Positions 34,543 to 50,439 of a stretch of 64,000 nucleotides of DNA are shown here, one piece after another. The DNA comes from a virus (lineage: Duplodnaviria; Caudoviricetes), in IMG/VR virus record IMGVR_UViG_3300028667_000050, positions 1 through 64,000 of that record; one strand, given 5' to 3'. Made by a program: the position numbers and the translations under genes. The number at the start of each line of letters is the position of its first letter. Positions within the stretch are counted from its first letter, which is position 1. Under the pieces are notes generated by a model. That model saw only the letters and a program-made list of their open reading frames with translations. It was not told the DNA's origin and made no database searches.

Positions 34543-36768
34543 TGGCTACACTTGGTGCGTCCTTATTTCTTGCTGCTAACCACATGAGCCTGTTTGCTTC
34601 TTTCCTGATCATGACGGCTGCCACGGTGGTAGATAACTATCTAATATCTTCATTGTCCTCCGGTACCAAGGTAACCCAGGCAAGGTTGACGATTTGTCTG
34701 TCCAGACTTGTACGGTGGGCAGTGCTATATCCAAAGGGTATGGGAAAGTAAGACTTACCGGCAATATCATATGGGGAACTAAATACACGGAGCATATTAA
34801 ACAAACAACCAGTTCTGCAGGAGGCAAGGGTGGTGGAGGAGCCAAGACTACTACCACCACCTATTCCTATTCTGCATCTTTTGCCATTGCCTTGGCAGAA
34901 GGGCCTATTGTGGGTGTAAGTGCTGTGTGGGCAGATGGCAATGCTATTTCCTTAGATGACCTGGACTACAGGCTGTACTATGGTACCGAAAACCAGATGC
35001 CCGATGAATTTATGGAGGCCATAGAAGGGGCAGGCAACGTTCCTGCCTACAGGGGCCTGGCCTATATCGTTTTCAAAAATGTCTTGCTTACGGATTATGG
35101 TAACAGGATACCTACTTTTAGTTTTGTAGTAGAGTTCCCAAAAAGTAATCTGAAAGACATTGTGGAAGATATTAGTGCCGATGCAGGGCTTATTCTGCAG
35201 CAAGAAGTTGATGCCGCTGCCTTATCTAACCTTTCAGTGGATGGCTTTATTCGCAATGGTTCTAAAACCTTTAGAGAACAGATGGAAGAATTAAGAGTGG
35301 TACATGTCTTTGATGGAACAGAACGCTTTGGCAAGATAGTCTTTGCTCCCAGAAGTTTTTCCACGGTTATACCTATTTCCAAGGGAGAGATAGGAGCCTT
35401 TGAAAATAAAGCAGGAGAGGAGCCTATTGAAACATCAATACAGTATGATATGGAGTTGCCCAAACGGCTGACCATTAGTTATCTTTCTAAGGATAACGAT
35501 TACCAGACGGGTATACAAACAGGATATCGGCAGCTGACGGGTGCCATAAGCGAGAAAAGTTTATCTACTAATGTAGTAATGTCCGATAGCGCAGCCAAGT
35601 CCGTAGCTGAAATGAGACTTTACGAACTTTGGATGGCAAGGACAACTCATGAATTCAAGCTGCCTATGAAGTATGGCTACGTACTGCCTGGTGATGTCCT
35701 GCAGCTTAATATGCCCAACGATACCGGCAGCCAGCTGGTGGTAGTAACCAAGGCCAACTTTGGCAGGCCGGGACTTAACGTAATCTCAGCTTCAAATGTA
35801 AATGCCATGAACTATACTTTGGTAACAAGACCGGTAGATGAAACGCCGGAAGCCATTATCAGTACACCAAGCGAGGTGTTTGCCTTTATCTTGGACTACC
35901 CAAAGGTATCCATAGACACTTCCAGTGGTGATGATTACGTCTACATTGCCGTAGGAGCAAAGAATTTCTATGGTGCTAATATTTATAGGTCTTATGATGC
36001 CGGGGTAAGCTACGAGCACCAGCTGACATTTACAGGTACAGCTACCTTTGGTGAAACACTGACAGCTTTAGGTAGTGCTTATCCGGAGTATTGGGACAAT
36101 GGCCATACTGTAGATGTGAAGCTTACAGCGGGTACTTTGGAAAGCCACACCAAGGCAGAAGTACTAAATTTTGCCAATGCTGCCGTAGTAGGAGACGAAG
36201 TTATCCAGTTCATGACGGCAGAACTTATTGCTGAAGATACCTACAGGCTGAAAGGCCTGCTGAGAGGCAGGAACGGTACTGAGCATAGAATGGAGAACCA
36301 CCAAATTGGTGAACGTTTTGTGCTTTTGAACAGCACCGGTATTTCAGCTCTGCCCATAAGCAAGAGCGACTGGTATACAGATGTGAACCTTAGAATTGGT
36401 CCAAGGGCCAACAGCGTAATAAACGACAGCTATAAGAACTATACTTTTCAGCCACAGGGAGAGATGTACAGGCCTTGGAGTGTTTGCTCCTTAAAAACCA
36501 AAAGGTGGATGGAAATATAGTAATTACCTGGAAACGCAGGACCAGAAAAGATGGTGCATGGAAAGATTATGCTGATGTGCCATTGTCTGAGAATACAGAG
36601 GCCTATGAGATAGAAGTGTTAGATAAAGATAATAAAGTATTACGCACTACGGCGGTAAGTCAGGAAAGCTACACGTATGATGGCACTGTTGCTGGTGCTT
36701 ATAAAGTTAAGGTTTATCAGATTAGTGAAGTAAGAGGTAGAGGGATAGAAGCTGAAATAGTTATTTAG
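34542..36768 (+). CDS. Central tail-tip / host-specificity protein (GTA megatron- or gpJ-like), frameshifts near 34690 and 36490
   Basis: YGKVRLTGNIIW...YSYSASFAIALAEGPI...PAYRGLAYIVF...GNRIPTFSF...AAVVGDEVIQF...LLRGRNGTE...WKRRTR. Confidence 0.85.
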
Positions 36769-36781
36769 AGCAAAAAAAAAC

Positions 36782-36914
36782 AAAACATTGCTTTATAGTA
36801 AGGCCCCATCTCTTACTTCCACTACCGACAGTGGAGCAGTTATGAATGGTTCAGACACTAATAAAGTCGGAAGTGCTGAGCAGGGGGGGGCATAACAGCA
36901 TAAAGCAATGTTTT
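36782..36914. repeat. 15-bp perfect inverted repeat enclosing a rod-foldable 103-bp core
   Basis: aaaacattgctttat (36782-36796) / ataaagcaatgtttt (36900-36914); inner gcccc/ggggc, acttcc/ggaagt, gac/gtc, agtg/cact, tgaa/ttca. Confidence 0.8.
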
Positions 36915-37028
36915 ATTTAAGAATAAGCTAGTTAATTTCTTTATGACCATAAAGGTTTACAAGAAACACTTTTCTTGCCTAGAATATAGCATTAAAAAAT
37001 TTGAAAGTCAATAAAAGGAGCTGATGCT

Positions 37029-37445
37029 GTGAGCAGCACAAAAAGAATAGGGCTGGAATACTTGGAGGTAAACCAGTCCCAGAAAGAAACAACGGTTAAC
37101 GAGGCTTTTAACAAGTTAGACTTATTTGCCGGATTAACAATAGAAAACATTATATCAGCACCACCTGGCAGTCCCACCGAAGGGGCTGCTTTTTTAGTGG
37201 GCGAAAGTGCTACCGGTGCTTTTCTTGGCAAAGAGAAGCAAATAGCTCATTACCTGAATGCTGGCTGGGAGTTCTATGCTCCATTTGAAGGACTGAAGTT
37301 ATACTGCCTTGCTGATAGCAGCAATTATCGCTACCTGTCCGGTGCTTGGCAGACCTTAAGCGAGCCAACTATCCAGGTGGTGGACGCCTTGCCTGCTACG
37401 CCAGTGGCAGGTGTGATTTATTTTGTGAAAGAGGCAACGACATGA
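37029..37445 (+). CDS. DUF2793 protein
   Basis: LEYLEVNQSQKETTVNEA...PPGSPTEG...V...ATGAF.GKE.QIA...GWEFYAP.EG. Confidence 0.85.
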   Translation: MSSTKRIGLEYLEVNQSQKETTVNEAFNKLDLFAGLTIENIISAPPGSPTEGAAFLVGESATGAFLGKEKQIAHYLNAGWEFYAPFEGLKLYCLADSSNYRYLSGAWQTLSEPTIQVVDALPATPVAGVIYFVKEATT

Positions 37446-37930
37446 TCAGCATAAATGGCAAGACCGTCAAAGAAGTATATGTGGGCAGCAATAAGATAAG
37501 CAAGGTCTATCATGGTTCTGATTTAATTTGGAAAGCAGGCGAAGGAGGTGATCCTAATATCTTTGACAAGTCCCTGACGGATATTTATGCCTATATCCGT
37601 TATGCCAACTTGTCATTTAATACAGCCACAGCGGATAACCTCATGGCTAGATGCGTGGTTGAGCCGAATACTACCTATACAGTTACGTTATTGATGGATA
37701 CCAGGTTTAGAATATTCAGCTACAATGGACAGCCGGTAAGTGGAACTGTTTTGTCTGGTGTCATTATTGATTCTTCAGATACCAATGGTACTGCTAGTGT
37801 TAACCAGACTAAGACTCTTTCTATTACGACCGGAAGCGATCATACCATGCTTTATATTGGTTATTGGACTAGCACCGGAACGATGGCGGCAGCAGATATT
37901 AGAAACAGCATCATAATTACTAAAAACTAA
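37442..37930 (+). CDS. Putative tail fibre/receptor-binding accessory protein
   Basis: MISINGKTVKEVYVGSNKISKVYHGSDLIW N-terminus followed by a beta-rich domain. Confidence 0.6.
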   Translation: MISINGKTVKEVYVGSNKISKVYHGSDLIWKAGEGGDPNIFDKSLTDIYAYIRYANLSFNTATADNLMARCVVEPNTTYTVTLLMDTRFRIFSYNGQPVSGTVLSGVIIDSSDTNGTASVNQTKTLSITTGSDHTMLYIGYWTSTGTMAAADIRNSIIITKN

Positions 37931-37944
37931 AGGAGTGAAAAAAA

Positions 37945-38454
37945 TTGAATAAAGAAGCTTTATATATGGCTATCACGGATAGCCTTAGAAATCTCCAGGA
38001 CGTATGGGTGGTAAAACTCATAACGTCCTTTTTTCTTGCCACGATTTATAACCTGCATGTACAGCTTATCTGTGCTTTTGCAGTTCTGGTGTTCCTGGAT
38101 CTGGGTACTAAATGGCTGGCCTTATCCAAGATGCATTTAGAAAATTCCGGCAAGGAAGCAAACATCATAAAAGAAATAAAAAATATCCCAGCAGCCAGAC
38201 GTGCGGGATATATCAAATCTACGGTAATGAAGAATAGGTTTATCGGCAAGATGTTCATCTATTGCCTTTTGACCTTTTGCGGTGGTGTGGTGGACCTTAT
38301 GCTTATTGCCCAGGGCAGACCGTCTATGGCGGTGTCTTTGGTGGTGGGCTATCTATCCGTAAATGAGCTCTTGTCTATTGTGGAAAACCTGCAAGATGCA
38401 GGAGTAGAAGAAGCCAAAAGACTAAAAGAAATTATAGACAGAAAGCTGGGATAG
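37945..38454 (+). CDS. Holin (phage_holin_4-like)
   Basis: LVFLDLGTKW...YLSVNELLSIVENL; directly before the endolysin. Confidence 0.8.
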   Translation: MNKEALYMAITDSLRNLQDVWVVKLITSFFLATIYNLHVQLICAFAVLVFLDLGTKWLALSKMHLENSGKEANIIKEIKNIPAARRAGYIKSTVMKNRFIGKMFIYCLLTFCGGVVDLMLIAQGRPSMAVSLVVGYLSVNELLSIVENLQDAGVEEAKRLKEIIDRKLG

Positions 38455-38455
38455 G

Positions 38456-39013
38456 ATGAAAGAGATTACTTTAGATGAACTTAAAGAAATGGCCCAAGCT
38501 ACTAAAGGCTATATTGACAAGATTTATGTGCATTGGACTGCCGGAAGATATCATCAGTTTTTTGATGACTACCATATTAATGTTGATGCAGATGGCAAAC
38601 TTTATGCTTCTACGGACGATTTAACAGAAGTGCTTGCGCATACCTGGCACAGGAACAGCAGGGCTGTTGGTATTGCCTTAGCGTGCTGTTATGGGGCAGA
38701 AGCTAATAGCGGTGAAGATGCCAATCTTGGTGATTACCCACCTACCCAGGAGCAGATTGATGGTGTGGCCAAAGCTATAGCCGTGCTATGCAAAGGGCTG
38801 GAAATTTCCATAGATTATGATCACATTATGACACATTGCGAAGCCGCAGAAGAGGACGATTATGGTCCGTCTACTACATGTGAGCGGTGGGACTTGTGGT
38901 ATTTGCCGGATACTCCGGGAAGTACCGAGCTTAAACCGGGCGGTGACGTCATCCGTGGCAAAGCGGCCTGGTGGCAAGAAAAATTGAAAGAAAGCGCTGA
39001 AAATGGGCTTTGA
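38456..39013 (+). CDS. Endolysin, N-acetylmuramoyl-L-alanine amidase (Amidase_2-like)
   Basis: IYVHWTAG...DDYHINV...HTWHRNSRAVGIALAC...IMTHCE. Confidence 0.85.
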   Translation: MKEITLDELKEMAQATKGYIDKIYVHWTAGRYHQFFDDYHINVDADGKLYASTDDLTEVLAHTWHRNSRAVGIALACCYGAEANSGEDANLGDYPPTQEQIDGVAKAIAVLCKGLEISIDYDHIMTHCEAAEEDDYGPSTTCERWDLWYLPDTPGSTELKPGGDVIRGKAAWWQEKLKESAENGL

Positions 39014-39130
39014 AATTTCGCTTTTGAGGCCTTTTTTCAGCTTGGTGTTTATGGTTAGTCCTATGAAAAATAGGAAAAACAACTTGCACACTTTAAAAAT
39101 TGGCATAGTAGCAATTTTAATGAAAATGGG

Positions 39131-39514
39131 GTGGTGATAGTGAATGATGAACAAAAGAAGTACCTTGTGTTTGGTATTCTTATCCTTATTATTTCTTTCC
39201 TGCTTGTGCTTACCGGCTACTTCATTGGCAGCAGAGTATCTGATAACGGATACGGAACTCAGCCAGTTGGAGAGCAACTTAAACAGGCTGGAGATAATCA
39301 ACAAGAACTCACAAAAGGAATTGTCGGCAGTAAAGAGCGAGCTGAAGATGTCGAAGGACGAATTGACCGAAGCCAAGAAACAATTGATTCTGCTGCAGAG
39401 CGAACTGGACGGGTTGAAGATAACGTCACAGAAGCAGGAGAGCTTATTAGCCAAAGCCAACGAATCCTTAAAAACGTACGCGCAAGAGGAGAAGTCAAAA
39501 AGGGCTGTAATTGA
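39131..39514 (+). CDS. i-spanin-like protein (N-terminal TM plus coiled coil)
   Basis: YLVFGILILIISFLLVLTGYFIG followed by a heptad region; after the endolysin. Confidence 0.6.
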   Translation: MVIVNDEQKKYLVFGILILIISFLLVLTGYFIGSRVSDNGYGTQPVGEQLKQAGDNQQELTKGIVGSKERAEDVEGRIDRSQETIDSAAERTGRVEDNVTEAGELISQSQRILKNVRARGEVKKGCN

Positions 39515-39578
39515 AAGGCAACGTAATCTTGCCTATGTATTAAGCGCAGGGTTGCTTTATGCCTGGGTAAGGAAATGA
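39144..39578 (+). CDS. Overlapping spanin-like partner (signal peptide, coiled coil, C-terminal TM)
   Basis: +1 frame relative to 39131; TLCLVFLSLLFLSCLCLPATSLAA; LSQLESNLNRL...; C-terminal LAYVLSAGLLYAWVRK. Confidence 0.65.
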   Translation: MMNKRSTLCLVFLSLLFLSCLCLPATSLAAEYLITDTELSQLESNLNRLEIINKNSQKELSAVKSELKMSKDELTEAKKQLILLQSELDGLKITSQKQESLLAKANESLKTYAQEEKSKRAVIERQRNLAYVLSAGLLYAWVRK

Positions 39579-39637: not shown

Positions 39638-40183
39638 TTAATACTTTATTTCGGAAAATTCTTTCATTAAAATTTTTTTTACCCTTTTAATTTTATCCCG
39701 CATGGTGTTTCGCGGCATGCCAATTTTGTCCGCTATGGCTTCTTCATTTGCACCGTTCAATTTAAGAGTTCCAATAAGGGTTGACTGTGACATAAGCTCA
39801 TTGGCGCTTTTGAGCAGCTGCTCAAAGATGACTTTGTTAGTGGCCAGCTCGTCTGTACCTAAAGCGTTGTCATCAGGGATGATATCAAGTAAAGGAACTC
39901 TTTCTCCATCGTGGGTGTCCATGGGTTCATCCAAGGAACAAAACTTACCGGGCGTGGCGTATTGGCATAGTCCACAATGCCCATCACACTTCCAGAGAAG
40001 CTTGGTCGGGCAGATGCATTGCCCATGACTGCGGGCTTGTTTCTGTACTCGCCAGATTTCTGGGTAGATGCCACGGTATACTTCTTCGGAAATTGGTATG
40101 AGGGTTATCTTGCGAGGATTATCGCAGTCTCTCATGGGGAAATACCTTTGTTTTTGTTGACGTTGGTTTTCTTTTTTTGCCAT
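39638..40183 (-). CDS. Sigma-70 region-4-like regulator with Cys cluster
   Basis: CICP...CDGHCGLCQY, SLDEP, C-terminal HTH EEAIADKIGMPRNTMRDKIKRVKKIL. Confidence 0.75.
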   Translation of the reverse strand: MAKKENQRQQKQRYFPMRDCDNPRKITLIPISEEVYRGIYPEIWRVQKQARSHGQCICPTKLLWKCDGHCGLCQYATPGKFCSLDEPMDTHDGERVPLLDIIPDDNALGTDELATNKVIFEQLLKSANELMSQSTLIGTLKLNGANEEAIADKIGMPRNTMRDKIKRVKKILMKEFSEIKY

Positions 40184-40626: not shown

Positions 40627-40662
40627 GGATATGCTCGGATATGATTGGATATGATTGGATAT
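40627..40662 (+). repeat. Four GGATAT repeats at 10-bp spacing
   Basis: Copies at 40627, 40637, 40647 and 40657, immediately before the RBS of 40676. Confidence 0.9.
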
Positions 40663-40675
40663 AGAGGTGTTTAAA

Positions 40676-41812
40676 ATGACATTTAGTGAGTTTGCGCAGA
40701 TTTTATACTCAGTGATTGGTTCCGGTAGCAACACCAGTGCCTTCGCTCGTACACTGCTTGATACCATTGTTATTTATGAGGATGAGGAGTTGAATCCGAT
40801 TCAGGAATTAAAGCGTCCGACCTTCAAGGCATACTACAATGGAACAAACAACATCACGAAAACAGCAAAAAAAATAAACGCCAATGTGGAGACATCAGCG
40901 TTTGAAGAATATATTGATACTTTCCCGGATAATGCTGTTCAAGCACTCTGCGGCGCTTTTGAAGAAGATATACCAGATATTACACCATATAATGCAAACC
41001 AGAAACTGGCAGAGTTGTTTGCTTCTATTATTTACGAAGCAGCCGCAGGAAAATCAAAGGATGTAGGTAAGAAGAAAATGAGCGAGGAAAAGACTACCTC
41101 CGTACATGGTAAACTGGCTGAGAAGGTTCTCCCTTCTGATGAGGCAATGGCAAAGGCAGGAGCAGTAGAGGAATTGGCGGAGGAACAAAAACGGCCTGCT
41201 AAAGCAAAAAGCGATCCTGTATTAAAGCCAAAATTGCTTTCCAGTGAGGATAATGCAATGCTCATAACGTTCAGAGAGAATGTAAAGGGCATTCTGAAAT
41301 ATTGCATAGAGCATGACCCAGCGGCTCAGCGAATTAGAATCAGTCTTGCAGATGAATTACATGACGTATATAGGAAGTGGCAATATGACCTGCGTGAAAT
41401 TGAGGATGATGCTTTTCGTCAGCTTGTAATAGACACAATACAGACGTTGGAGAAATATTCCTATTATGTATCCGATGTTTTTTTGCAACTGATTCCTGGA
41501 ACTGATAAGCTGTGTTTTAGGAACGGATCTGCAGAAGAAGGAGACCGTTTAAGAGATGTGCTTAGGCCGAAATCAAATGAATTGCGGCTTGCAATTGCAG
41601 AATTATATAGAAGACTGTATCCAATTAAGGAGGAGGCAAAGCCGGATGAGCCGGAGCTAGTCGAATCAGAGGTCGTGGATGAAGAATCATCCTGTGCCGC
41701 AGATACAACAGACAAGGACGCAAAGACTAAGACAATCAACAATCATACCACTGTAAACCAGTATGGTGAAAAGAATGTTCATATAGACTATGTTGAAAAT
41801 CTGAAACTATGA
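40676..41812 (+). CDS. Uncharacterised protein; possible N-terminal DNA-binding domain; C-terminal TVNQYGEKNVHIDYVEN motif
   Basis: Intact ORF; acidic linker before the terminal motif; first gene of the defence operon. Confidence 0.75.
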   Translation: MTFSEFAQILYSVIGSGSNTSAFARTLLDTIVIYEDEELNPIQELKRPTFKAYYNGTNNITKTAKKINANVETSAFEEYIDTFPDNAVQALCGAFEEDIPDITPYNANQKLAELFASIIYEAAAGKSKDVGKKKMSEEKTTSVHGKLAEKVLPSDEAMAKAGAVEELAEEQKRPAKAKSDPVLKPKLLSSEDNAMLITFRENVKGILKYCIEHDPAAQRIRISLADELHDVYRKWQYDLREIEDDAFRQLVIDTIQTLEKYSYYVSDVFLQLIPGTDKLCFRNGSAEEGDRLRDVLRPKSNELRLAIAELYRRLYPIKEEAKPDEPELVESEVVDEESSCAADTTDKDAKTKTINNHTTVNQYGEKNVHIDYVENLKL

Positions 41813-42465
41813 ACGGAGATGCACCTATGAAGAATGAATTGCAGATGGCAGCTAGCATCAACACCTTGCCAGCAAAGACAGTAAATCAGTATGGTAAAAA
41901 GAATGTACATATTGATAAGGCCGAAAATGTAACACAGAATATAATCTTGAGTCTTCCATATGTGCAGAGAATGGCGAATGGAGCGATGCAGCCGACTAGC
42001 AGAGTTATCAATTCGGAATATTACAATTTGTTTGTGATTGGAGATGAGACCTTTGAACACGACCATTTCCTTGTTCCGGCAGAACGGGCGCTATCAAAGG
42101 GCTGGACATCAGATAAAATAAGGGAACATTATGGAACGTTATCCGAAGAATCCATTGAGGTTATCAAAACATTTCCTGCGCTATTTATGCCAGAGGCGCA
42201 GTGGCAAAGTGCAAGACCTGGAGAAGGCCAACAGGTGTTCTTTGGTTTTGTGGATGGCATAAGAAAACAGGACAATGGAATAAAAATACAATGTCAGTTG
42301 ATTTGGCCTATACCCATGCAGCAGATAAGCAATATTGGTTTTGAACTTGGCATGTTAAACATGACGAGGGAGATATCAGAAATGAATCACACCCATTGGG
42401 CTATCAAGCATATCAACTTGAAGGAAGAACTGACCGATGCACATATTTCTCTATTAGGATTCTGA
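41809..42465 (+). CDS. Uncharacterised protein with N-terminal TVNQYGKKNVHIDKAEN motif and C-terminal EMNHTHWAIK domain
   Basis: Intact 218-aa ORF with ATGA overlap to the upstream gene. Confidence 0.75.
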   Translation: MNGDAPMKNELQMAASINTLPAKTVNQYGKKNVHIDKAENVTQNIILSLPYVQRMANGAMQPTSRVINSEYYNLFVIGDETFEHDHFLVPAERALSKGWTSDKIREHYGTLSEESIEVIKTFPALFMPEAQWQSARPGEGQQVFFGFVDGIRKQDNGIKIQCQLIWPIPMQQISNIGFELGMLNMTREISEMNHTHWAIKHINLKEELTDAHISLLGF

Positions 42466-42479
42466 CGGGAGGTGAAAGT

Positions 42480-44765
42480 ATGAGGGACAAACTTACGGCA
42501 GAAATAAGAAAACTGAGTTTGAATGATGCATCCTACAAAGGATGTGGGGTATCGATTGTACCGACCTATGTGAACTTCTTCTTTGGTAATAATGGCACGG
42601 GAAAATCCACCATAGGTAAAGCGATAAAGGTAGATAACGGTGTAGAATGGCAGCAGGGGTACTTGGCTTCAGATTACAAAATACATGTTTATAATCTGGA
42701 TTACATCAGCGCCAATTTGCACAACTACCATAATCTTCATGGCGTTTTTACTGTGAATGAGGTTAATGTCACTATTCAGGCAAATGTCGATGAAAAGCTG
42801 GCACAAAAGGAAAAAGCGTCTACAGCTTTTGCTGAAGCTGGCGATGCGAAAACGAAGAAAACTTCCGCATTGCAAGAGGCATTGGAACGGTTCCAACAGG
42901 AATGCTGGGAGAAAACAACCGACCTACGTGCAAAATTCAGGAAAACACAAGTGAACAGGATGCAAAAGAAATCATTCGCTGAAGGCGTGCTCGAAATCAA
43001 GAATCCTAAAGAGCACGATGTTGATGCTCTGCGTCGCCTCTATGATATAGCTTATTCTGACGATGCAAAAAAATATGAGCTATTTCCATCAGTTGCAAAT
43101 CCAGCAGTTTTGGATGAACTTGAAGGCAGGGATATTCTTGGCAAGAGAATCGTGAGTAGCGCTGACACACCATTTGCTCAGTTCCTAAAGAAAATAAATG
43201 CGGCCAGTTGGGTGCAGCAGAGTCATGAGCAATTTCATAAAGCAGCAGGAAATACCTGCCCGTATTGCCAACAGCATTTGCCGGTTAGCTTTGAGGAGAA
43301 TTTACGAGCCTGTTTTGATTCCAGTTATCAGGAAGCGCAACAAGCCCTGTCCTATTATTATGATGCATACCGAAATGTTGCCAACACGATGGTAGCGCCG
43401 TTGTTTAAGCCACCTGTAGAGCTGATGCCTGAAATCAATATTACACCTTTCACAGATAAGGTGGCCGCCATTAGGGGCGTTATTGCAACAAACCTGCAGA
43501 AGATAAAAGAAAAGATGAATGAGCCAGCAAGCGTTGTTGAAATTGAGAATGTGGCAACAATGTTGGGTGAATTAAAAACTATCATTGCTGGTTTTAACAC
43601 ACTCATTAGAGAGAATAACGTTATCCTCGATACAAAGCAAAAAAAACAGGTAGAATGCAGAATAGCTGTCTGGGAGCATATTGCTTTCTTGTTGGCTGAC
43701 CAGATTAGTCGTTACAAGACAAGCAAGTCCTCCCTGGAGGATGAAATATCTAAGCTGATAACGGAGATTTCAACACAGCGAACAGCAATTAGTACACTGA
43801 CACGTGAAATTGCTGAGCTCAATAAGGACTGTGTGAATACTACATCCACAATTGAGAGCGTAAATATGCTGCTTCGTGATTCCGGATTCCAAGGTTTTAG
43901 CCTTCGGGAAAAAGAAGGAACACTAAATGTTTATGAAGTAGTGAGGCCGGATGGAACTATTGCTGAAAACCTGAGTGAAGGCGAGAGAAACTTTATAGCA
44001 TTTCTGTACTTCTACCATCAGGTAAAGGGCAGTGATAATCCAGATGGCAGCCAGCTCGACAAAATTGTGGTGATTGATGACCCGGTATCAAGTATGGATA
44101 GCAGTGCACTATTTATCGTCAGCGCGCTGGTGCGTGAGATGATTCAGATTTGCGAGAATAATGCTGTGGGCAGTGAACTGGCAACGAAGGCAGACTATAT
44201 CAAACAGATTTTCATTCTGACACATAACGCATATTTTCACAGGGAAATTACCTACAACCAGGTGAAGAATTATTTGTTTGTGAATTTCTATTTGATAAGC
44301 AAGGTTGACAACAAGTCCTCCATCAAACTTTGTAAAAAAACTAACCCGGAAATCATGACCGAGGAAATCAACTACAATTCGGTGCAAAATTCCTATGCGG
44401 CCCTCTGGGAAGAATATAAAGAAATCAATGCACCGATTCCTCTCATGAATGTCATCAGGCGAATACTGGAGTACTACTTCCTTCAGCTTTGCGGCTATGA
44501 TGGAGTAACACTTCGTAAGCGGCTCTTAATTGATAATAAAGATAAGTTCATTACAACAGACGCCAGCGGAAAAGAGAACTTCACTCAATACCAAATGGCG
44601 CATGCGATGCTTTCCTATATTTGCGCTAATTCAGTGGGTATCAATGATGGCATCAATTTCGTAGATGACTGTGTAGATGTAGAACAAACGAAAAAAACCT
44701 TTAGTCTTGTATTTGCGTTAATGGAACAAAAGCAGCACTATGACATGATGATGGGAAATCAGTAA
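42480..44765 (+). CDS. RloC-like ABC ATPase (AAA_13) with zinc hook
   Basis: GNNGTGKST Walker A, CPYCQQ hook, LSEGE signature, VVIDDPVSSMD Walker B, LTHN, C-terminal NVIRRILEYYF. Confidence 0.85.
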   Translation: MRDKLTAEIRKLSLNDASYKGCGVSIVPTYVNFFFGNNGTGKSTIGKAIKVDNGVEWQQGYLASDYKIHVYNLDYISANLHNYHNLHGVFTVNEVNVTIQANVDEKLAQKEKASTAFAEAGDAKTKKTSALQEALERFQQECWEKTTDLRAKFRKTQVNRMQKKSFAEGVLEIKNPKEHDVDALRRLYDIAYSDDAKKYELFPSVANPAVLDELEGRDILGKRIVSSADTPFAQFLKKINAASWVQQSHEQFHKAAGNTCPYCQQHLPVSFEENLRACFDSSYQEAQQALSYYYDAYRNVANTMVAPLFKPPVELMPEINITPFTDKVAAIRGVIATNLQKIKEKMNEPASVVEIENVATMLGELKTIIAGFNTLIRENNVILDTKQKKQVECRIAVWEHIAFLLADQISRYKTSKSSLEDEISKLITEISTQRTAISTLTREIAELNKDCVNTTSTIESVNMLLRDSGFQGFSLREKEGTLNVYEVVRPDGTIAENLSEGERNFIAFLYFYHQVKGSDNPDGSQLDKIVVIDDPVSSMDSSALFIVSALVREMIQICENNAVGSELATKADYIKQIFILTHNAYFHREITYNQVKNYLFVNFYLISKVDNKSSIKLCKKTNPEIMTEEINYNSVQNSYAALWEEYKEINAPIPLMNVIRRILEYYFLQLCGYDGVTLRKRLLIDNKDKFITTDASGKENFTQYQMAHAMLSYICANSVGINDGINFVDDCVDVEQTKKTFSLVFALMEQKQHYDMMMGNQ

Positions 44766-44777
44766 AGGAGAAAGAAA

Positions 44778-44990
44778 ATGCGTATCAGTTATAACAAGCT
44801 ATGGAAAATGCTAATAGATAAAGGTATGAAAAAAAGCGATTTGAAAGAGACTGCAGGAATCAGCTCGGCTTCAATTGCCAAGCTCGGTAAAGGAGAAAAT
44901 ATCACTACAGACGTTTTGATAAAAATTTGCGAGTCAATGAATTGCCATTTAGAGGACATAATGGAGACAATCGAAGATGATGAGTCTTGA
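44778..44990 (+). CDS. Xre/Cro-type HTH regulator (possible R-M controller)
   Basis: ISYNKLWKMLIDKGMKKSDL...IAKLGKGENIT...IC..MNC...DIME. Confidence 0.9.
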   Translation: MRISYNKLWKMLIDKGMKKSDLKETAGISSASIAKLGKGENITTDVLIKICESMNCHLEDIMETIEDDES

Positions 44991-45124: not shown

Positions 45125-47572
45125 GTGAAAGTTGTGGCTTTATTGCAAGACCTAATTCAACAAATAGATGATCCGGCACTTCGAAAAAGAATCCTACAGG
45201 AAACAGATAAATTAGTTAAGCAGAAGAAATTCGGACTGGTGTTTGAAGAGCATCTACCTGAATGCACACCTCTTTACGATATGCCTATTCATGTGGGTTC
45301 AAAAGTGGCTTTGAAAACAGGATATGTAAAAGAAATTTATACAGTCTTGAAAATAGATGGAGATGATATCCTGTGCGACGGGAGAGAAACACACGAGCAT
45401 GTTTCTTTCAAAAAAACTGAAATAGTTGTGATAGCGGAATTTGGAGAGCCAATTTATCCGACGTTGAAACCAATTGACTCTGTAGAAAACGCTCCTGATA
45501 GCGAATTGTGGCACACCCTGATTGAGGCAGATAATTATCATGCTCTTCAGCTATTGGAATATCTATATGCTGGAAAAGTTGATTGTATTTACATCGATCC
45601 GCCCTACAACACGGGTGCAAAAGATTGGAAATACAACAATGATTATGTTGATGGTTCTGATGCGTATAGGCATAGTAAATGGCTTTCTTTTATGGAAAAA
45701 CGTTTAAAAATAGCTAAACGATTACTGAATCCTGCTACGGGAGTTATGATTGTAACAATTGACGAACATGAAGTTCATCATCTTAGAGCATTATTGGAAC
45801 AAATAATGCCAGAATTCTATATTCAAATGACAACATATGTTACAAATCCTAAGGGCGTTACTCAAGGTAGATTTTCACGGGTCGAGGAATATGCTTTGTA
45901 TTGCTTCGCACCAAATGCTTTTGTATGTGAAGCTAAAGATAACCTTTTAAATCCTGTAGAAGAAGGTAGAAAACCTAGATGGAAAGGTTTGCTGCGCTCT
46001 GGAACAAATGCAAGAAGAGAAGATAGAAAAAACATGTTTTATCCTGTATACGTAGATAAACAACATAAACGTGTTGTAGGTACTGGAACAAATCTACCTT
46101 ATGAACAGCTACCAGATTTAGATATGAAGAGTGGAGAATATGAATTAGCGTGGCCTATAAGGAGCGATGGAAGTTATGGTAACTGGGGAGTAGGGTATGA
46201 AACCCTTAGAAAATTAATAGACAAGGGGTATGTTTCTTTAGGTAAATACGATACAACTAGAAAAACATGGGCAATCAGTTATATTAGTATCCCTAATCAA
46301 AAATTAATTGATGATGGGAATATTATTATTACTAGTAGAGACTCTAATACCGGTGTTGTAAATATAGAATATGCTAATTCAAATAACAGAGCTATTAAAA
46401 CGGTTTGGTATAGAACGCTACATGATGCAGGAGCATATGGCACAGATTTAGTATCTTCAATTATAGGAAGGTCAAGAACATTTTCTTTTCCAAAGTCAGT
46501 CTATGCGGAAAAAGATGCCATATCAGCTGTTCTTAAAAACAATAAAAATGCGCTCATAATAGATTTCTTTGCAGGTTCTGGAACAACTTTACATGCAGTA
46601 AATATTATGAATTACGAAGATGGTGGTAATAGAAGATGCATCCTTATTACAAACAATGAAGTTTCAAATGATGAGGCAACGGAACTTAAAAAACAAGGTT
46701 TCCAAGCAGGAGATAGAGAGTGGGAAGAGCTTGGTATCGCACATTCTGTTACGTGGCCACGAACAAAAAATAGTATTTTAGGAAAACGTAAGGATGGTTC
46801 TGAACTCCAGAACGAGTATATAACATCTTTAAGCGAAAAAAAGTTTAAACAGCGAAAATTCATTCACGTTGGATATTTTAATAATATAAAAACAATGAAT
46901 AAAAAAGATAAAAAAGCACTCATGTCTCTCTTTGCAAAAGGCATACTTCCACAGAATTTAATTTCAGACGAAACAAAGTTCGTTGTATCTGACAATGAGA
47001 AACATAATATTTCTGTGTTGTTTGATGACGATTATGTTGATGAATGGCTAGATGCGCTGGACGAAATGTTTCATATAACAACTTTTTATATCTTTACAAA
47101 AAATAAAAGTAATTTTGATTCAATAAAAAATAAGATTGATATATTATTGGGTGATATAGAAGAACAAGTACCCTTAAAAATTTCAATGAAAAATGGATTT
47201 AAAACTAATGCTCAATTTTTAAAACTAAGTTTCCTTGATAAAACATCTATAGCATTAGGAAGACAATTCAGAGAACTAATGCCTGTTCTATGGATGAAAG
47301 GCGGAGCTGTTGGTAAATGCCCTCTGCTGAAAAGTAATAGGTTACCCAAGATGCTCATTATTCCCCAAAACAAGATGGCCGTTCTAATTGATGAAACCTG
47401 CTATTCGGAATTTGATGCGGAGTTATCCACTCACACAGAAATTCAAACAATTTTTATTGTTACTGACTCCGAGAGCGCTTATCGGGAAATGATTCGCACC
47501 TATGACAATAAAGATTGCTATCAGCTTTACAGAGACTATTTGGATAATTTCCGTATTAACACAAGGAGGTAA
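45125..47572 (+). CDS. mod: Type III R-M-like modification methylase
   Basis: IEADNYHAL, IYIDPPYNTG, SRHSKW-like RHSKWLSFME, FPKS, DFFAGSGTT. Confidence 0.88.
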   Translation: MKVVALLQDLIQQIDDPALRKRILQETDKLVKQKKFGLVFEEHLPECTPLYDMPIHVGSKVALKTGYVKEIYTVLKIDGDDILCDGRETHEHVSFKKTEIVVIAEFGEPIYPTLKPIDSVENAPDSELWHTLIEADNYHALQLLEYLYAGKVDCIYIDPPYNTGAKDWKYNNDYVDGSDAYRHSKWLSFMEKRLKIAKRLLNPATGVMIVTIDEHEVHHLRALLEQIMPEFYIQMTTYVTNPKGVTQGRFSRVEEYALYCFAPNAFVCEAKDNLLNPVEEGRKPRWKGLLRSGTNARREDRKNMFYPVYVDKQHKRVVGTGTNLPYEQLPDLDMKSGEYELAWPIRSDGSYGNWGVGYETLRKLIDKGYVSLGKYDTTRKTWAISYISIPNQKLIDDGNIIITSRDSNTGVVNIEYANSNNRAIKTVWYRTLHDAGAYGTDLVSSIIGRSRTFSFPKSVYAEKDAISAVLKNNKNALIIDFFAGSGTTLHAVNIMNYEDGGNRRCILITNNEVSNDEATELKKQGFQAGDREWEELGIAHSVTWPRTKNSILGKRKDGSELQNEYITSLSEKKFKQRKFIHVGYFNNIKTMNKKDKKALMSLFAKGILPQNLISDETKFVVSDNEKHNISVLFDDDYVDEWLDALDEMFHITTFYIFTKNKSNFDSIKNKIDILLGDIEEQVPLKISMKNGFKTNAQFLKLSFLDKTSIALGRQFRELMPVLWMKGGAVGKCPLLKSNRLPKMLIIPQNKMAVLIDETCYSEFDAELSTHTEIQTIFIVTDSESAYREMIRTYDNKDCYQLYRDYLDNFRINTRR

Positions 47573-47574
47573 AT

Positions 47575-50439
47575 ATGAAGGTAGAATTATTTCCATTTCA
47601 AAAAAGAGCTCTCGCTGACATTCGTATGAAAACAGCGGAAGCATTGGGCAGTTACCACAGAACCCATGCTCCGCAGGTAGTATCCTTTACTGCTCCTACT
47701 GGCGCAGGCAAAACAATCATTATGGCTTCTTTGATTGAAAGCCTTTTCTTTGGCGATGAGTCATACTCAGAACAGCAGAATGCCGTTGTTATTTGGCTTT
47801 CAGATTCTCCACAACTAAATGAACAATCAAAATTAAAAATCGATTCAAAGGCAGATAAAATTAGTCTTGGACAGTGTGTAACTGTTAGCGAAGATTCTTT
47901 TGACAAGGAGTTCTTTGAAGATGGGCATATATATTTTTTAAATACACAAAAGTTATCAAAAACATCAAACTTAACAAAGAATGGTGATGGTCGCTCCTAT
48001 ACCATTTGGCAAACCATCGCTAATACCATTCGCGAAAAAGGAAATCGTCTCTACTTCATTATAGATGAAGCCCATCGTGGTATGCAGGGACGAGAGGCTG
48101 GTAAAGCCACAACCATCATGCAAAAGTTCCTCAAAGGTAGTATTGAAGATGACATTCCTCCGATGCCAGTGGTAATTGGCATGTCTGCAACAACACAACG
48201 ATTCAATGCATTGGTTGAAGGAACTTCCTCCACAATCCATAAATTCGTAGTTTCAGCTGATGAAGTGCGTGCATCTGGCCTTTTAAAGGATAGAATTGTT
48301 ATTACCTATCCAGAAGAAGGTGCTGCGAATAAAGATATGGCTATACTGCAAGCAGCAGCGGATGACTGGAAAGAAAAATGGGATCATTGGACACAGTACT
48401 GCTATGAGCAACACTATGCTTATGTAAATCCCGTTTTAGTTGTACAAGTATTGAGTGGTAGTGGCAGCAATTTATCTGACACAGATTTGGATGATTGTTT
48501 AAGTAAAATAGAAGAACGTACTGGAATCAAATTTGAAGCAGGACAAGTTGTTCATACTTTCGGGCAGACAAACGCCTCTATTCAAATTAATGGTCTTGAA
48601 GTTTGCTATGAAGAGCCTTCTAGAATTGCTGAAGACCGAAATATACGTGTAGTGTTCTTTAAAGAAAGTCTTTCTACAGGATGGGATTGCCCTCGTGCTG
48701 AAACCATGATGTCATTCAAACACGCAAATGATGCAACCTATATTGCACAACTACTTGGGCGCATGGTTAGAACGCCAATGCAGATGCATATTCAAGTGGA
48801 TGATGTATTAAACGATGTCCATTTATATTTGCCATACTTCAATGAAGAAACTGTAAAGGAGGTTGTAGATGCATTGCAAAGTGCCGAAGGTGGTGACATT
48901 CCTACAGATATATATGGCGAATCGCTGACAGGCAGAAAATTTGAAACGCTAACTGTAAAGTCGAAGAATAAAAGAAAAATTCAGGAAATTCTCGGTCGAA
49001 TGTCTCTTGATGATTTCGACTCTGGTAATACTAATACTGATTTTAACATAAACAATGGTACACAAAAACCAATTAATACTACAACTCATGAAGCTAAGAA
49101 TATTTCACCAGAAGGTTCTGATACATCTAATGATGAAAAAAAATACACAGAAGAAACTACAGTAGTGCCAACTTCAAATACTATTGGCACATCTATGCTT
49201 ACAGAGACACAAAAAGATGTGCCAATCATCGAAAACAATGAAGCTACCATAAACACTGCTGAAGCTACTGAAGAACTATTTGACCGTGAAGCTGTAATGA
49301 AATTTATTAATGATGCTGGGCTTTTATCCTATGATGTTAGAGCTGTTCGCATTAGCAACTATTTAGTTTCTTTATTTAAAATGGCTCACCTACTCACTAT
49401 GTCTGGTCTTCAGCGTGAAGCGATTCGAGAAATCCAATCAGAAATCGTTCAAATGATATATGACCATGTTGAAATGCTCAAAGCCAAAGATAAATATGAC
49501 GATCTTGTCCTACAAGTAAAGCAATTTAAGTTGGTCACACAGATTTTTGATGCTTTTGGTGAAACAGTAGCCAATTATTCTGTACACGACCTATTCACAA
49601 CAACAGATTCTGATATCGACAGGCAATTTCGTGTAGCAGACAGTAAACTCTGCAACGAAGGCATTGGCAATGTATATGGTAATAAATACATGGATATAAA
49701 TAATCCAAGTGCTTTTAAAGTTGATGTTATTCTGTTTGTTGCAGACGTGGAATGCATGAATAGCCTTTACCAATATGCCGAGGCAAGATTTCACGGATTG
49801 AATGATGAATATCGTAGATACATTGCTACAGTTAATTCGGAAAAAATAAGAAAACAATATGATAGCATTGTCTCGGATGGTGATGACGTAAGTAAGCATA
49901 ACTTCAGACTTCCTGAAACAATTCAAGTTCCTTACGAAGATGGCGGAAAAGAATATGCAGATCATCTTTTTATAAACGATGCTTCGGGAGTCGCAAAGTT
50001 AAAGCTAAATACATGGGAAGAAGGAGTTATTTCGGAGGAAGAAAGACGAGATGATTTTGTATGCTGGATCCGCAACCCTTCTCGCGGTACATGGCCTCTT
50101 TGTATTCCATATGAGATAGATGCTATTCCTAAACGTACTTATCCGGATTTTATCATTATTAGAAAAGACAAAATTTCTAAATATGTTATTGATATTCTTG
50201 AACCACACAATCCGGAATTTAAAGACAATCTTGGCAAAGCAAAAGGATTTGCAGAATATGCCAGACAAAATCCCGGTGTTGGAAGAATTCAGCTTATTCG
50301 TATGTGCAAAGATGCTGCGGGAAATAATCGATTCAAACGTCTTGATATGTCCAAAAGTTCAGTCAGAGACAAAGTTTCTCGTGTAATGAGCAACGATGAA
50401 TTAGACCACGTATTTGATACTGATGGTTTCTTCGCGTGA
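47575..50439 (+). CDS. res: Type III R-M-like restriction helicase/endonuclease
   Basis: APTGAGKT, IIDEAH, GWDCPRAE, QLLGRMVR, C-terminal YPDFII..ILEPH nuclease motif. Confidence 0.85.
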   Translation: MKVELFPFQKRALADIRMKTAEALGSYHRTHAPQVVSFTAPTGAGKTIIMASLIESLFFGDESYSEQQNAVVIWLSDSPQLNEQSKLKIDSKADKISLGQCVTVSEDSFDKEFFEDGHIYFLNTQKLSKTSNLTKNGDGRSYTIWQTIANTIREKGNRLYFIIDEAHRGMQGREAGKATTIMQKFLKGSIEDDIPPMPVVIGMSATTQRFNALVEGTSSTIHKFVVSADEVRASGLLKDRIVITYPEEGAANKDMAILQAAADDWKEKWDHWTQYCYEQHYAYVNPVLVVQVLSGSGSNLSDTDLDDCLSKIEERTGIKFEAGQVVHTFGQTNASIQINGLEVCYEEPSRIAEDRNIRVVFFKESLSTGWDCPRAETMMSFKHANDATYIAQLLGRMVRTPMQMHIQVDDVLNDVHLYLPYFNEETVKEVVDALQSAEGGDIPTDIYGESLTGRKFETLTVKSKNKRKIQEILGRMSLDDFDSGNTNTDFNINNGTQKPINTTTHEAKNISPEGSDTSNDEKKYTEETTVVPTSNTIGTSMLTETQKDVPIIENNEATINTAEATEELFDREAVMKFINDAGLLSYDVRAVRISNYLVSLFKMAHLLTMSGLQREAIREIQSEIVQMIYDHVEMLKAKDKYDDLVLQVKQFKLVTQIFDAFGETVANYSVHDLFTTTDSDIDRQFRVADSKLCNEGIGNVYGNKYMDINNPSAFKVDVILFVADVECMNSLYQYAEARFHGLNDEYRRYIATVNSEKIRKQYDSIVSDGDDVSKHNFRLPETIQVPYEDGGKEYADHLFINDASGVAKLKLNTWEEGVISEEERRDDFVCWIRNPSRGTWPLCIPYEIDAIPKRTYPDFIIIRKDKISKYVIDILEPHNPEFKDNLGKAKGFAEYARQNPGVGRIQLIRMCKDAAGNNRFKRLDMSKSSVRDKVSRVMSNDELDHVFDTDGFFA

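Follow-up and report, generated by a model that had tools for sequence, protein, structure and literature searches.

Near-identical terminal tags of two adjacent provirus genes: a candidate BASS-like, NLR-free amyloid-type signalling pair

The DNA stretch analysed here spans positions 1 to 64,000 of the IMG/VR record IMGVR_UViG_3300028667_000050, an 81-kb provirus that is rated complete by CheckV; the whole 64,000-nucleotide stretch is referred to below as the window. Two adjacent genes of the window, here denoted U and MC, encode nearly the same 17-residue peptide at the C-terminus of the first protein and in the N-terminal tail of the second. We propose, with a probability of about 0.5, that these peptides are a pair of amyloid-type homotypic signalling tags that resembles the BASS pairs and does not involve a NOD-like receptor (NLR). 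The chances are likewise about even that the tags connect the helical U protein with the PUA-like MC protein non-covalently, as in pairs of the BASS, HET-s or RHIM kind. An amyloid-type reading is favoured because the two tags are near-identical rather than complementary and diversify fast under a self-matching constraint, and because of their N/Q/G/V/I composition, an invariant glycine, the disorder of both termini, the presence of RHIM-like cores in a part of the family and the existence of an NB-ARC relative.

A shared motif at the facing ends of two genes

Gene U (40676-41812, plus strand; 378 aa) lies within an open reading frame (ORF) that extends from 40655 to 41812, with the likely start codon ATG at 40676 and the stop codon at 41810-41812. 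The C-terminal end of the U protein reads ...NNHTTVNQYGEKNVHIDYVENLKL, followed by the stop codon. The motif TVNQYGEKNVHIDYVEN (41750-41800, plus strand) corresponds to U residues 359-375 and is followed by LKL and the stop codon; it is identical in 14 of the 17 residues to TVNQYGKKNVHIDKAEN (41878-41928, plus strand), which corresponds to residues 18-34 of MC. Five of the identical residues (T, N, V, I and D) are encoded by different codons in the two copies, and the DNA identity between the copies is 40/51, or about 78%. An ungapped BLOSUM62 comparison of the two tails gives a best 15-residue score of 67, compared to 18.6 +/- 4.4 (maximum 44) for shuffled N-regions; chance is excluded as the source of the match. 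Both the 17-residue motif with its 14 identities and the five synonymous codon differences had been described in a first-pass annotation of the window and were recovered when the sequence was read again.

The first ATG of the second ORF (41809) overlaps the stop codon of U as ATGA, a 4-nt overlap. The true start of MC is probably the ATG at 41827, 14 nt past the U stop codon, because the MC homologues all begin with MKNELQ and because GGAG is found 8 nt before this ATG. The MC gene thus defined (41827-42465, plus strand) encodes 212 aa, with a disordered N-terminal tail (residues 1-38) and a globular alpha/beta core (residues 39-212) in the AlphaFold2 (AF2) model. The first-pass annotation started this protein at 41809 and assigned the motif to its N-terminus; the motif indeed belongs to the N-terminal tail, and with the start at 41827 it does not form the extreme end. 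The same annotation compared the arrangement, in which the C-terminus of one protein and the N-terminus of its neighbour share a motif, to those of HET-S/NWD2 and BASS, and the comparison holds with either start, that is, with a gap of 14 nt or an overlap of 4 nt.

The extreme N-terminus of MC, M-(K/S)-(N/D)-(E/K)-L-Q, followed by a proline-containing spacer, is retained before the tag in most MC proteins (41827-41877, residues 1-17, in the window). A third copy of the motif was sought in the ATPase encoded downstream, in the helix-turn-helix (HTH) proteins and elsewhere in the loci, and none was found except in a second MC paralogue of one locus (L051).

Recurrence and matched variation of the tags

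A profile of MC homologues (alignment A1) identified 55 genomic and 44 IMG/VR loci, with hosts that include Clostridia, Acetobacterium, Oscillospiraceae, Lachnospiraceae, Veillonella, Dethiobacter and many metagenome-assembled genomes (MAGs). Among about 94 related loci, nearly every upstream collinear gene encodes a C-terminal tail that matches the MC N-terminal tail. The motif differs strongly between loci and changes in both genes together; at least 10 motif types can be distinguished. Examples of cognate U and MC tails are INISGGNNSFYQHVD and ITVSGGNNNFVAHAD, GDGNMVIPNYGTINI and GNDNVLIPNYGTVNI, and QYGNNGTQIGHVENY and QYGNDSTQIAYVQHY; further cognate pairs are HFEQSGKGTQIGFVE and HMEQSGKGKQIGFVQ, NVHYGSGDIYSDIGT and NIHTGSGDIYSNIGT, and PVQNVNPSATTVITN and PVENVNPNATTVTTN.

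For 37 non-redundant loci, the mean tail score is 48.8 within a locus (8.6 identical residues out of 15) vs 25.7 across loci (permutation p < 5e-5). When cognate tails were compared with swapped ones in path-disjoint sister pairs, taken from an MC-core tree built without the motif, the cognate combination scored higher in 13 pairs and lower in 4 (sign test p = 0.025); the four losses have margins of 1-3 points and all occur among loci that share one motif type. Among identical degenerate residues of paired tails, 167 use the same codon and 175 use different codons, with 154 same-codon cases expected from codon usage. Because codon identity is near this expectation, the tail matching is maintained by selection at the peptide level and not by gene conversion; peptide-level selection had been read from the window alone in the first-pass annotation. 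That annotation had also proposed to look for recurrent N-/C-terminal pairing in adjacent genes, which nearly all of the approximately 94 loci display, and had named beforehand a lack of co-conservation of the motif in the two genes as an outcome that would speak against it; across the related loci, the motif is co-conserved and co-varies in both genes.

One locus (L051:504-2709) encodes two tandem MC paralogues, each with an N-terminal tag. The tag of one paralogue matches the first half of the U tail (FHVENHGDGIAAG and FNVHAEGNGVAVG) and that of the other matches the second half (GDGIAAGIVYGGITI and GNATAIGAVYGGISF), so that the tag is shared three ways.

Composition and predicted structure of the tags

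Both tags are located in regions that AF2 monomer models leave disordered, namely residues 1-38 of MC and residues 315-378 of U. Asparagine accounts for 17.5% of the U tail vs 4.7% of the rest of U, and for 13.4% of the MC tail vs about 5-6% of the protein bodies. Besides asparagine, the U tail is enriched in I, G, V and Q, with L, A and R being scarce, and the MC tail shows the same trend; the linker that precedes the U tag is acidic (Asp and Glu together make up 25%). The glycine of the N-Q-x-G signature is nearly invariant in both families: it is G23 of MC (alignment A1), and in U, where the signature reads NQYG, it is one of just three nearly invariant columns in the entire alignment (A2).

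A phi-Q-phi-[G/A] core (phi, hydrophobic residue) is present in 25 of the 78 representative MC tails, for which shuffling gives an expectation of 3.4, and 6 of the 37 U tails have it, with 0.4 expected. The stricter G-phi-Q-phi-G pattern was detected in 5 of the 78 MC tails (0.1 expected) and in 3 of the 37 U tails. The phi-Q-phi-G core has been described as common to RHIM, PP and BASS3 motifs (Dyrka et al., bioRxiv 10.1101/2020.01.06.895854).

Two further computations did not bear on the issue. Complex prediction for U residues 300-378 with full-length MC, using our own alignments, gave a score of 0.02, which yields no verdict and is used neither for nor against binding. When the U tail alone (residues 330-378) served as the query of a word-based search, only close homologues were retrieved, which is uninformative with respect to the use of the tag by other domains.

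Domain architecture of the U proteins

In the AF2 model, U consists of a confidently predicted all-helical N-terminal domain (residues 1-125), a disordered charged stretch (129-185), a helical mid-domain (approximately 190-314), the acidic linker and the C-terminal motif. The mid-domain is optional in the family, and short U forms (209-230 aa) have nothing but the N-domain, a linker and the tag. Searches of Pfam and NCBIfam did not assign U to any family. The PADLOC model of LmuA (PDLC03857) matches the window protein with an E-value of 3e-23 over residues 8-149 of the 385-aa ORF translation (approximately 1-142 in the 378-aa numbering); this match covers only positions 1-152 of the 327-position model, that is, its N-terminal half. 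The U N-domain also shows a weak match to HamA, and an ESM Atlas feature search with this domain yielded scores below 0.8 and was uninformative. Two types of the N-domain are found in the family, type A in the window and type B, with the signature RLCGGTFF...FLLGVWHY...WCP, in most loci; type-B U proteins have no match in PADLOC. The first-pass annotation considered the first gene to encode a putative DNA-binding protein, and here we depart from it: U shows no sign of DNA binding; it has no Pfam match, and its N-domain is a helical bundle whose sole sequence link is to the N-terminal half of the LmuA model. A shared, peptide-selected motif in adjacent genes of a defence island is retained from that interpretation.

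The MC family and its fusions

MC, which the first-pass annotation referred to as a WAIK-domain protein, has no match in Pfam, NCBIfam or PADLOC, which does not exclude remote kinship with the LmuC/MC families. Structure comparison of the MC core (residues 39-212, including the WAIK sequence) with Foldseek and VIA-align returned PUA-like domains, namely PH1033 (Z 6.7), the DrmA N-domain (6.3), VcaM4I (5.7), and YTH and McrB-N (about 5.4), with EVE and ASCH domains also among the top matches. The scores are modest but consistent (Z 5-6.7, TM-score 0.3-0.4), and the modelled core thus weakly resembles the PUA-like fold (EVE/YTH/ASCH). Atlas models with an MC-like fold adjoin TIR_2, CAP12-PCTIR and FRG domains. 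At 50% identity, the MC family comprises 950 clusters.

At least 10 clusters (50% identity) consist of single-chain U-MC fusions, in which a type-B U N-domain is joined through a linker to the MC core. Most of these fusions lack the motif (e.g., P0121, P0215, P0240 and P0275), and some retain one conserved motif (P0125, P0127 and P0149). Because such fusions exist and are mostly motif-free, the tag pair, as judged from these architectures, occupies the spot where the relatives have a peptide bond. Other fusions of the MC core include AbiJ_NTD3-MC-TIR_2, MC-Patatin and U-MC-(second motif)-DUF6650. In particular, P0124 and P0126 (755 aa) contain a second tag-like stretch, FSQTGDRNTLIAHADSVV, after the MC core, followed by DUF6650 (PF20355; residues approximately 585-755), which hints that the tag might also serve other domains.

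The NB-ARC relative, P0232, combines an N-terminal motif, the MC core, an NB-ARC domain (GLGGVGKT, LLIFDD) and DUF7779. In the respective locus (L102), a type-B U protein ends with ITVNNYGTVQNQKFISIETMNGDINL, and its gene overlaps by 4 nt the NLR-like gene, the product of which begins with ...NATVNNQTIINIQNMSGNVAIP; this motif is situated exactly at the NLR-side position of the BASS motifs. Downstream of P0232 are an HTH_17 gene and a Type I restriction-modification (R-M) system, with no AAA_13 gene within 6 kb. Neither NB-ARC nor NACHT occurs in the window, where the nucleoside triphosphatase (NTPase) is a separate AAA_13 protein.

Relationship to known systems

No earlier description of the U-MC pair was found in the literature searched. 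Among the closest counterparts are the BASS pairs, which are Bell-domain/NLR gene pairs (Dyrka et al., bioRxiv 10.1101/2020.01.06.895854). As in BASS, a motif of at least 15 residues rich in N, Q, G and hydrophobic residues is located at the C-terminus of the upstream protein and at the N-terminus of the downstream one, the collinear genes are separated by tiny gaps or overlap slightly, similarity within a locus exceeds that between loci, and all-in-one fused equivalents exist; furthermore, the BASS3/RHIM-like phi-Q-phi-G core is found in part of the U-MC family, and one relative, P0232, is a true NB-ARC protein. Unlike in BASS, there is no Bell domain match for U, the window motif precedes a PUA-like domain rather than an NLR, the NTPase is a separate ATP-binding cassette (ABC) ATPase of the AAA_13 family, and the hosts are unicellular anaerobic Bacillota and their prophages instead of filamentous Actinobacteria or Cyanobacteria. 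Judging from sequence, the U-MC layout is of the kind that the operational criteria for BASS pairs are designed to find; the motif is set beside BASS by its layout and composition and by the phi-Q-phi-G core of part of the family.

The Bab/Agp system (BASS11) is a non-NLR abortive infection (Abi) system from an E. coli prophage island for which both amyloid formation and defence have been shown experimentally (bioRxiv 10.1101/2024.11.07.622273). Like U-MC, it combines a non-NLR receptor carrying an N-terminal tag with an adjacent small helical protein carrying a C-terminal tag of about 20 residues, in a prophage defence island; it differs from U-MC, which is known from sequences alone, in the identity of the partners, MC being PUA-like and U being helical and LmuA-like. 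Among eukaryotes, HET-S/NWD2, HELLP/PNT1 (PP motif) and the RHIMs of RIPK1/RIPK3 similarly involve a receptor and an effector that are either fused or split and linked by a templated homotypic motif, and part of the U-MC family shares their phi-Q-phi-G core. These systems have HeLo, Hell or kinase partners, in contrast to U-MC, and in the window copy the RHIM tetrad is replaced by N-V-H-I-D.

Lamassu (ABC-3C; LmuA-LmuC-LmuB or DdmABC) resembles the U-MC loci in the order of an effector, a small middle component and a coiled-coil ABC ATPase. The differences are that the U-MC ATPase is best matched by AAA_13/PDC-S06 and not by LmuB, that MC matches no LmuC or MC model, and that U lacks the C-terminal docking domain of LmuA and has a linker and a tag at this position. 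We know of no paired terminal motif described for Lamassu. Finally, PrrC and RloC share with the U-MC loci the AAA_13 family, a CxxC hook-like motif (NTCPYCQQ) and a position next to or within R-M loci of Type I or Type III, but act alone, without an upstream tagged pair. Compared with the published systems, we propose that U-MC represents a variant of the amyloid-type signalling pair with new partners, hosts and NTPase.

Proposed mechanism and alternative explanations

If the tags are indeed of the amyloid type, MC would be the sensing or adaptor part and would work together with an NTPase, which in most loci would be the AAA_13 ABC ATPase acting in trans and in one relative the NB-ARC domain fused to MC. 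A phage-related signal would bring MC into an oligomer, in which the disordered N-terminal tags could stack as a cross-beta fold, and this fold would recruit and template the near-identical C-terminal tag of U. The helical N-domain of U, the presumed effector, would thereby be clustered and activated, with abortive infection as the probable outcome.

Several observations weigh against this scenario. The AF2 monomer models contain no beta-arch for either tag (pLDDT, the predicted local confidence score, of 30-50), and a beta fold predicted by AlphaFold has been reported for BASS11 (bioRxiv 10.1101/2024.11.07.622273). The window motif lacks the G-phi-Q-phi-G core, with G-E/K-K-N-V-H-I-D in its place, and includes several charged residues, and one clade (L011, L013, L061 and relatives) shows weak tail similarity only, with scores of 27-28. 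Foldseek and VIA-align comparisons of the U model yielded unspecific helical matches (Z at most 6.1), with no Bell, HeLo or MLKL domains among the matches listed, which leaves room for remote kinship. In the fusions, U lies N-terminal to MC, in the slot that is held by AbiJ_NTD3 in the TIR-bearing relative, and because of this position U could be a sensor or regulator instead of an effector. Moreover, binding of both peptides to a single site of a dimeric partner would likewise be expected to make them similar.

The latter point is central to the possibility that the tags are ordinary, non-amyloid docking elements that would yield a stoichiometric U-MC(-ATPase) complex, analogous to the LmuA-LmuC-LmuB2 complex of Lamassu. 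Both tails might bind to a shared partner, for instance the MC core or the dimer of the zinc-hook ATPase, at one site or at sites related by symmetry, or else the tails might pair with each other in a finite beta-sheet; taken jointly, these two versions are a serious possibility that we rate somewhat above one in three. The gene order, with an effector-like protein, a small middle protein and a coiled-coil ABC ATPase, is that of Lamassu, in which LmuA1:LmuC1:LmuB2 complexes are formed and both small subunits are located on the LmuB coiled coils (bioRxiv 10.1101/2025.06.23.660979). The match of the U N-domain to the LmuA model and the weak match of the ATPase to LmuB are in line with docking, as are the AAA_13 gene that follows in 80 of 98 loci and is still present in 4 of the 5 genomes where it is not adjacent, and the motif-free fusions, which are expected if the tags merely tether the two proteins. 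Nevertheless, the motif changes radically between loci in which the ATPases are 43-48% and the MC cores 35-40% identical, and therefore a self-matching constraint fits better than a conserved receptor pocket. The pair is also found in the P0232 locus, where NB-ARC is fused to MC and AAA_13 is missing within 6 kb, and in the L054 genome, which has an AAA_13 fragment only; some fusions (P0124, P0125 and P0127) retain one conserved motif even though a tether is needless there; and strand-to-strand pairing requires complementarity rather than near-identity, with the N/Q/G/V/I composition being typical of amyloid signalling motifs. A search for genomes that have the pair but no AAA_13 gene, aimed at docking on the ATPase, did not discriminate, given that four of the five genomes do carry AAA_13.

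Two further explanations are rated much lower. Under the first, which we consider highly improbable, the similarity is a DNA-level effect without a protein function, caused by gene conversion, a recent duplication or a site of recombination through which the two genes are shuffled or fused. The fusions with exactly one motif (P0125, P0127 and P0149) could stem from recombination between the copies, but codon identity is at the level set by codon usage (167 vs 154 expected, with 175 different), the window copies are only about 78% identical in DNA, and in Clostridia, Negativicutes and other MAGs the pair persists in the form of at least 10 motif types. Ribosomal hopping between the motif copies was also considered and dropped, since the codons differ and the fusions are genomic genes. 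The other explanation, an unlikely one although less so, is that U and MC are a regulatory or replication pair of the mobile element, with tags for heterodimer assembly and with the R-M and ATPase genes as unrelated cargo. It would account for the fixed place of the pair in this family of elements, where a conserved divergent gene precedes it (48 loci) and a highly conserved HTH_17 gene follows (66 loci, 71-98% identical). It is difficult to reconcile with the fusion of the MC core to TIR_2, Patatin, AbiJ_NTD3 and NB-ARC in relatives, with the TIR and FRG domains that adjoin structurally similar domains, with the match of U to a Lamassu effector model, and with the genes after U-MC, which are always defence genes.

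Implications of an amyloid-type tag pair

Amyloid-type signalling from an immune receptor to an executioner is established in fungi, in animals (RHIM) and in filamentous bacteria. To our knowledge, Bab/Agp is the only bacterial antiphage case that has been tested experimentally. The U-MC loci provide dozens of natural orthogonal tag pairs, along with fused and tag-free controls and the NB-ARC variant, and thus make it testable whether a self-matching tag of about 20 residues stands in for a covalent link through templated assembly or through simple docking. They also offer a working hypothesis for two large families of hypothetical proteins that are common in prophages of the gut and of anaerobes, and suggest that PDC-S06 (AAA_13), listed by PADLOC as a single-gene candidate, usually occurs in these elements together with a module of two tagged proteins.

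A broader generalization, which we put forward tentatively and consider to have roughly one chance in three, is that the PUA-like sensor family (about 950 clusters, mainly in mobile elements of Bacillota) uses fast-evolving, locus-specific amyloid tags, some of them RHIM-like, to switch on a new helical effector, with an ABC ATPase of the RloC/PrrC type rather than an NLR as the oligomerizing engine. If so, amyloid immune signalling would extend to unicellular anaerobes, prophages and guard systems composed of ABC ATPases and R-M genes, and the tags would act as orthogonal "addresses" that prevent cross-talk between co-resident systems.

Associated genes and genomic setting

The gene for the AAA_13 (RloC/PrrC-like) coiled-coil ABC ATPase (42477-44765, plus strand; 762 aa) starts with an ATG 11 nt past the MC stop codon, which ends at 42465. 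The protein matches Pfam PF13166 (E 4e-117) and PADLOC PDC-S06 (E 2e-201) and has a weak match to LmuB (E 4e-16) over residues 108-594; its coiled-coil insert contains a CxxC motif, as does the zinc hook of Rad50 and RloC. Next to it are a gene for a small HTH_26 (Xre-type) protein (44778-44990, plus strand), which is retained after the ATPase in the window's clade and found in 18 loci, and the neighbouring Type III R-M genes of the defence island, mod (45125-47572) and res (47575-50439), both on the plus strand. The prophage defence setting that the first-pass annotation envisaged is supported by the provirus record and by the adjoining ATPase and R-M genes. In the related loci, too, R-M genes are usually found downstream of the pair, along with the ATPase.

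Where a homologous ATPase is encoded downstream of MC, it usually follows a 66-aa HTH_17 (excisionase/MerR-like) gene, which lies between MC and the ATPase in most loci (L023:5662-5862 and 65 others). This protein is far more conserved than its neighbours, with 71-98% identity across loci where the MC proteins are 35-40% identical; it is absent from this position in the window, the clade of which has HTH_26 after the ATPase instead. In loci with a non-adjacent ATPase, R-M or SNF2/DUF4391 genes lie in between. In two of the four checked genomes that still have a non-adjacent AAA_13 gene, it is located about 11.5 kb downstream on the same strand; the L054 genome, with only the AAA_13 fragment, has a well-matched tag pair. 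Because the ATPase is not always adjacent and other genes are often inserted, U-MC is the conserved minimal unit. The ATPase may be a third component of it, or else a co-travelling protein that guards the R-M genes in the manner of PrrC/RloC.

In two loci (L100:928-16253 and L101:1004-15737), about six plus-strand genes are inserted between U-MC-HTH_17 and the AAA_13 ATPase. They encode a 1077-aa SNF2 helicase, a DUF4391 protein and proteins of 357, 620, 1015 and 440 aa, and the insert looks like one defence system embedded in another.

On the other side of the module, a divergent gene (39638-40183, minus strand) encodes a 181-aa protein that a Pfam search did not assign to any family; by tblastn, homologues (26-44% identity) are located upstream of U in 48 of 98 loci. 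This gene may be a regulator of the module or a component of the element backbone. Phage tail, holin-like, amidase-like and spanin-like ORFs at 34694-39578 immediately precede the module, which is therefore situated at the lysis-proximal end of the prophage, a usual site for accessory defence genes.

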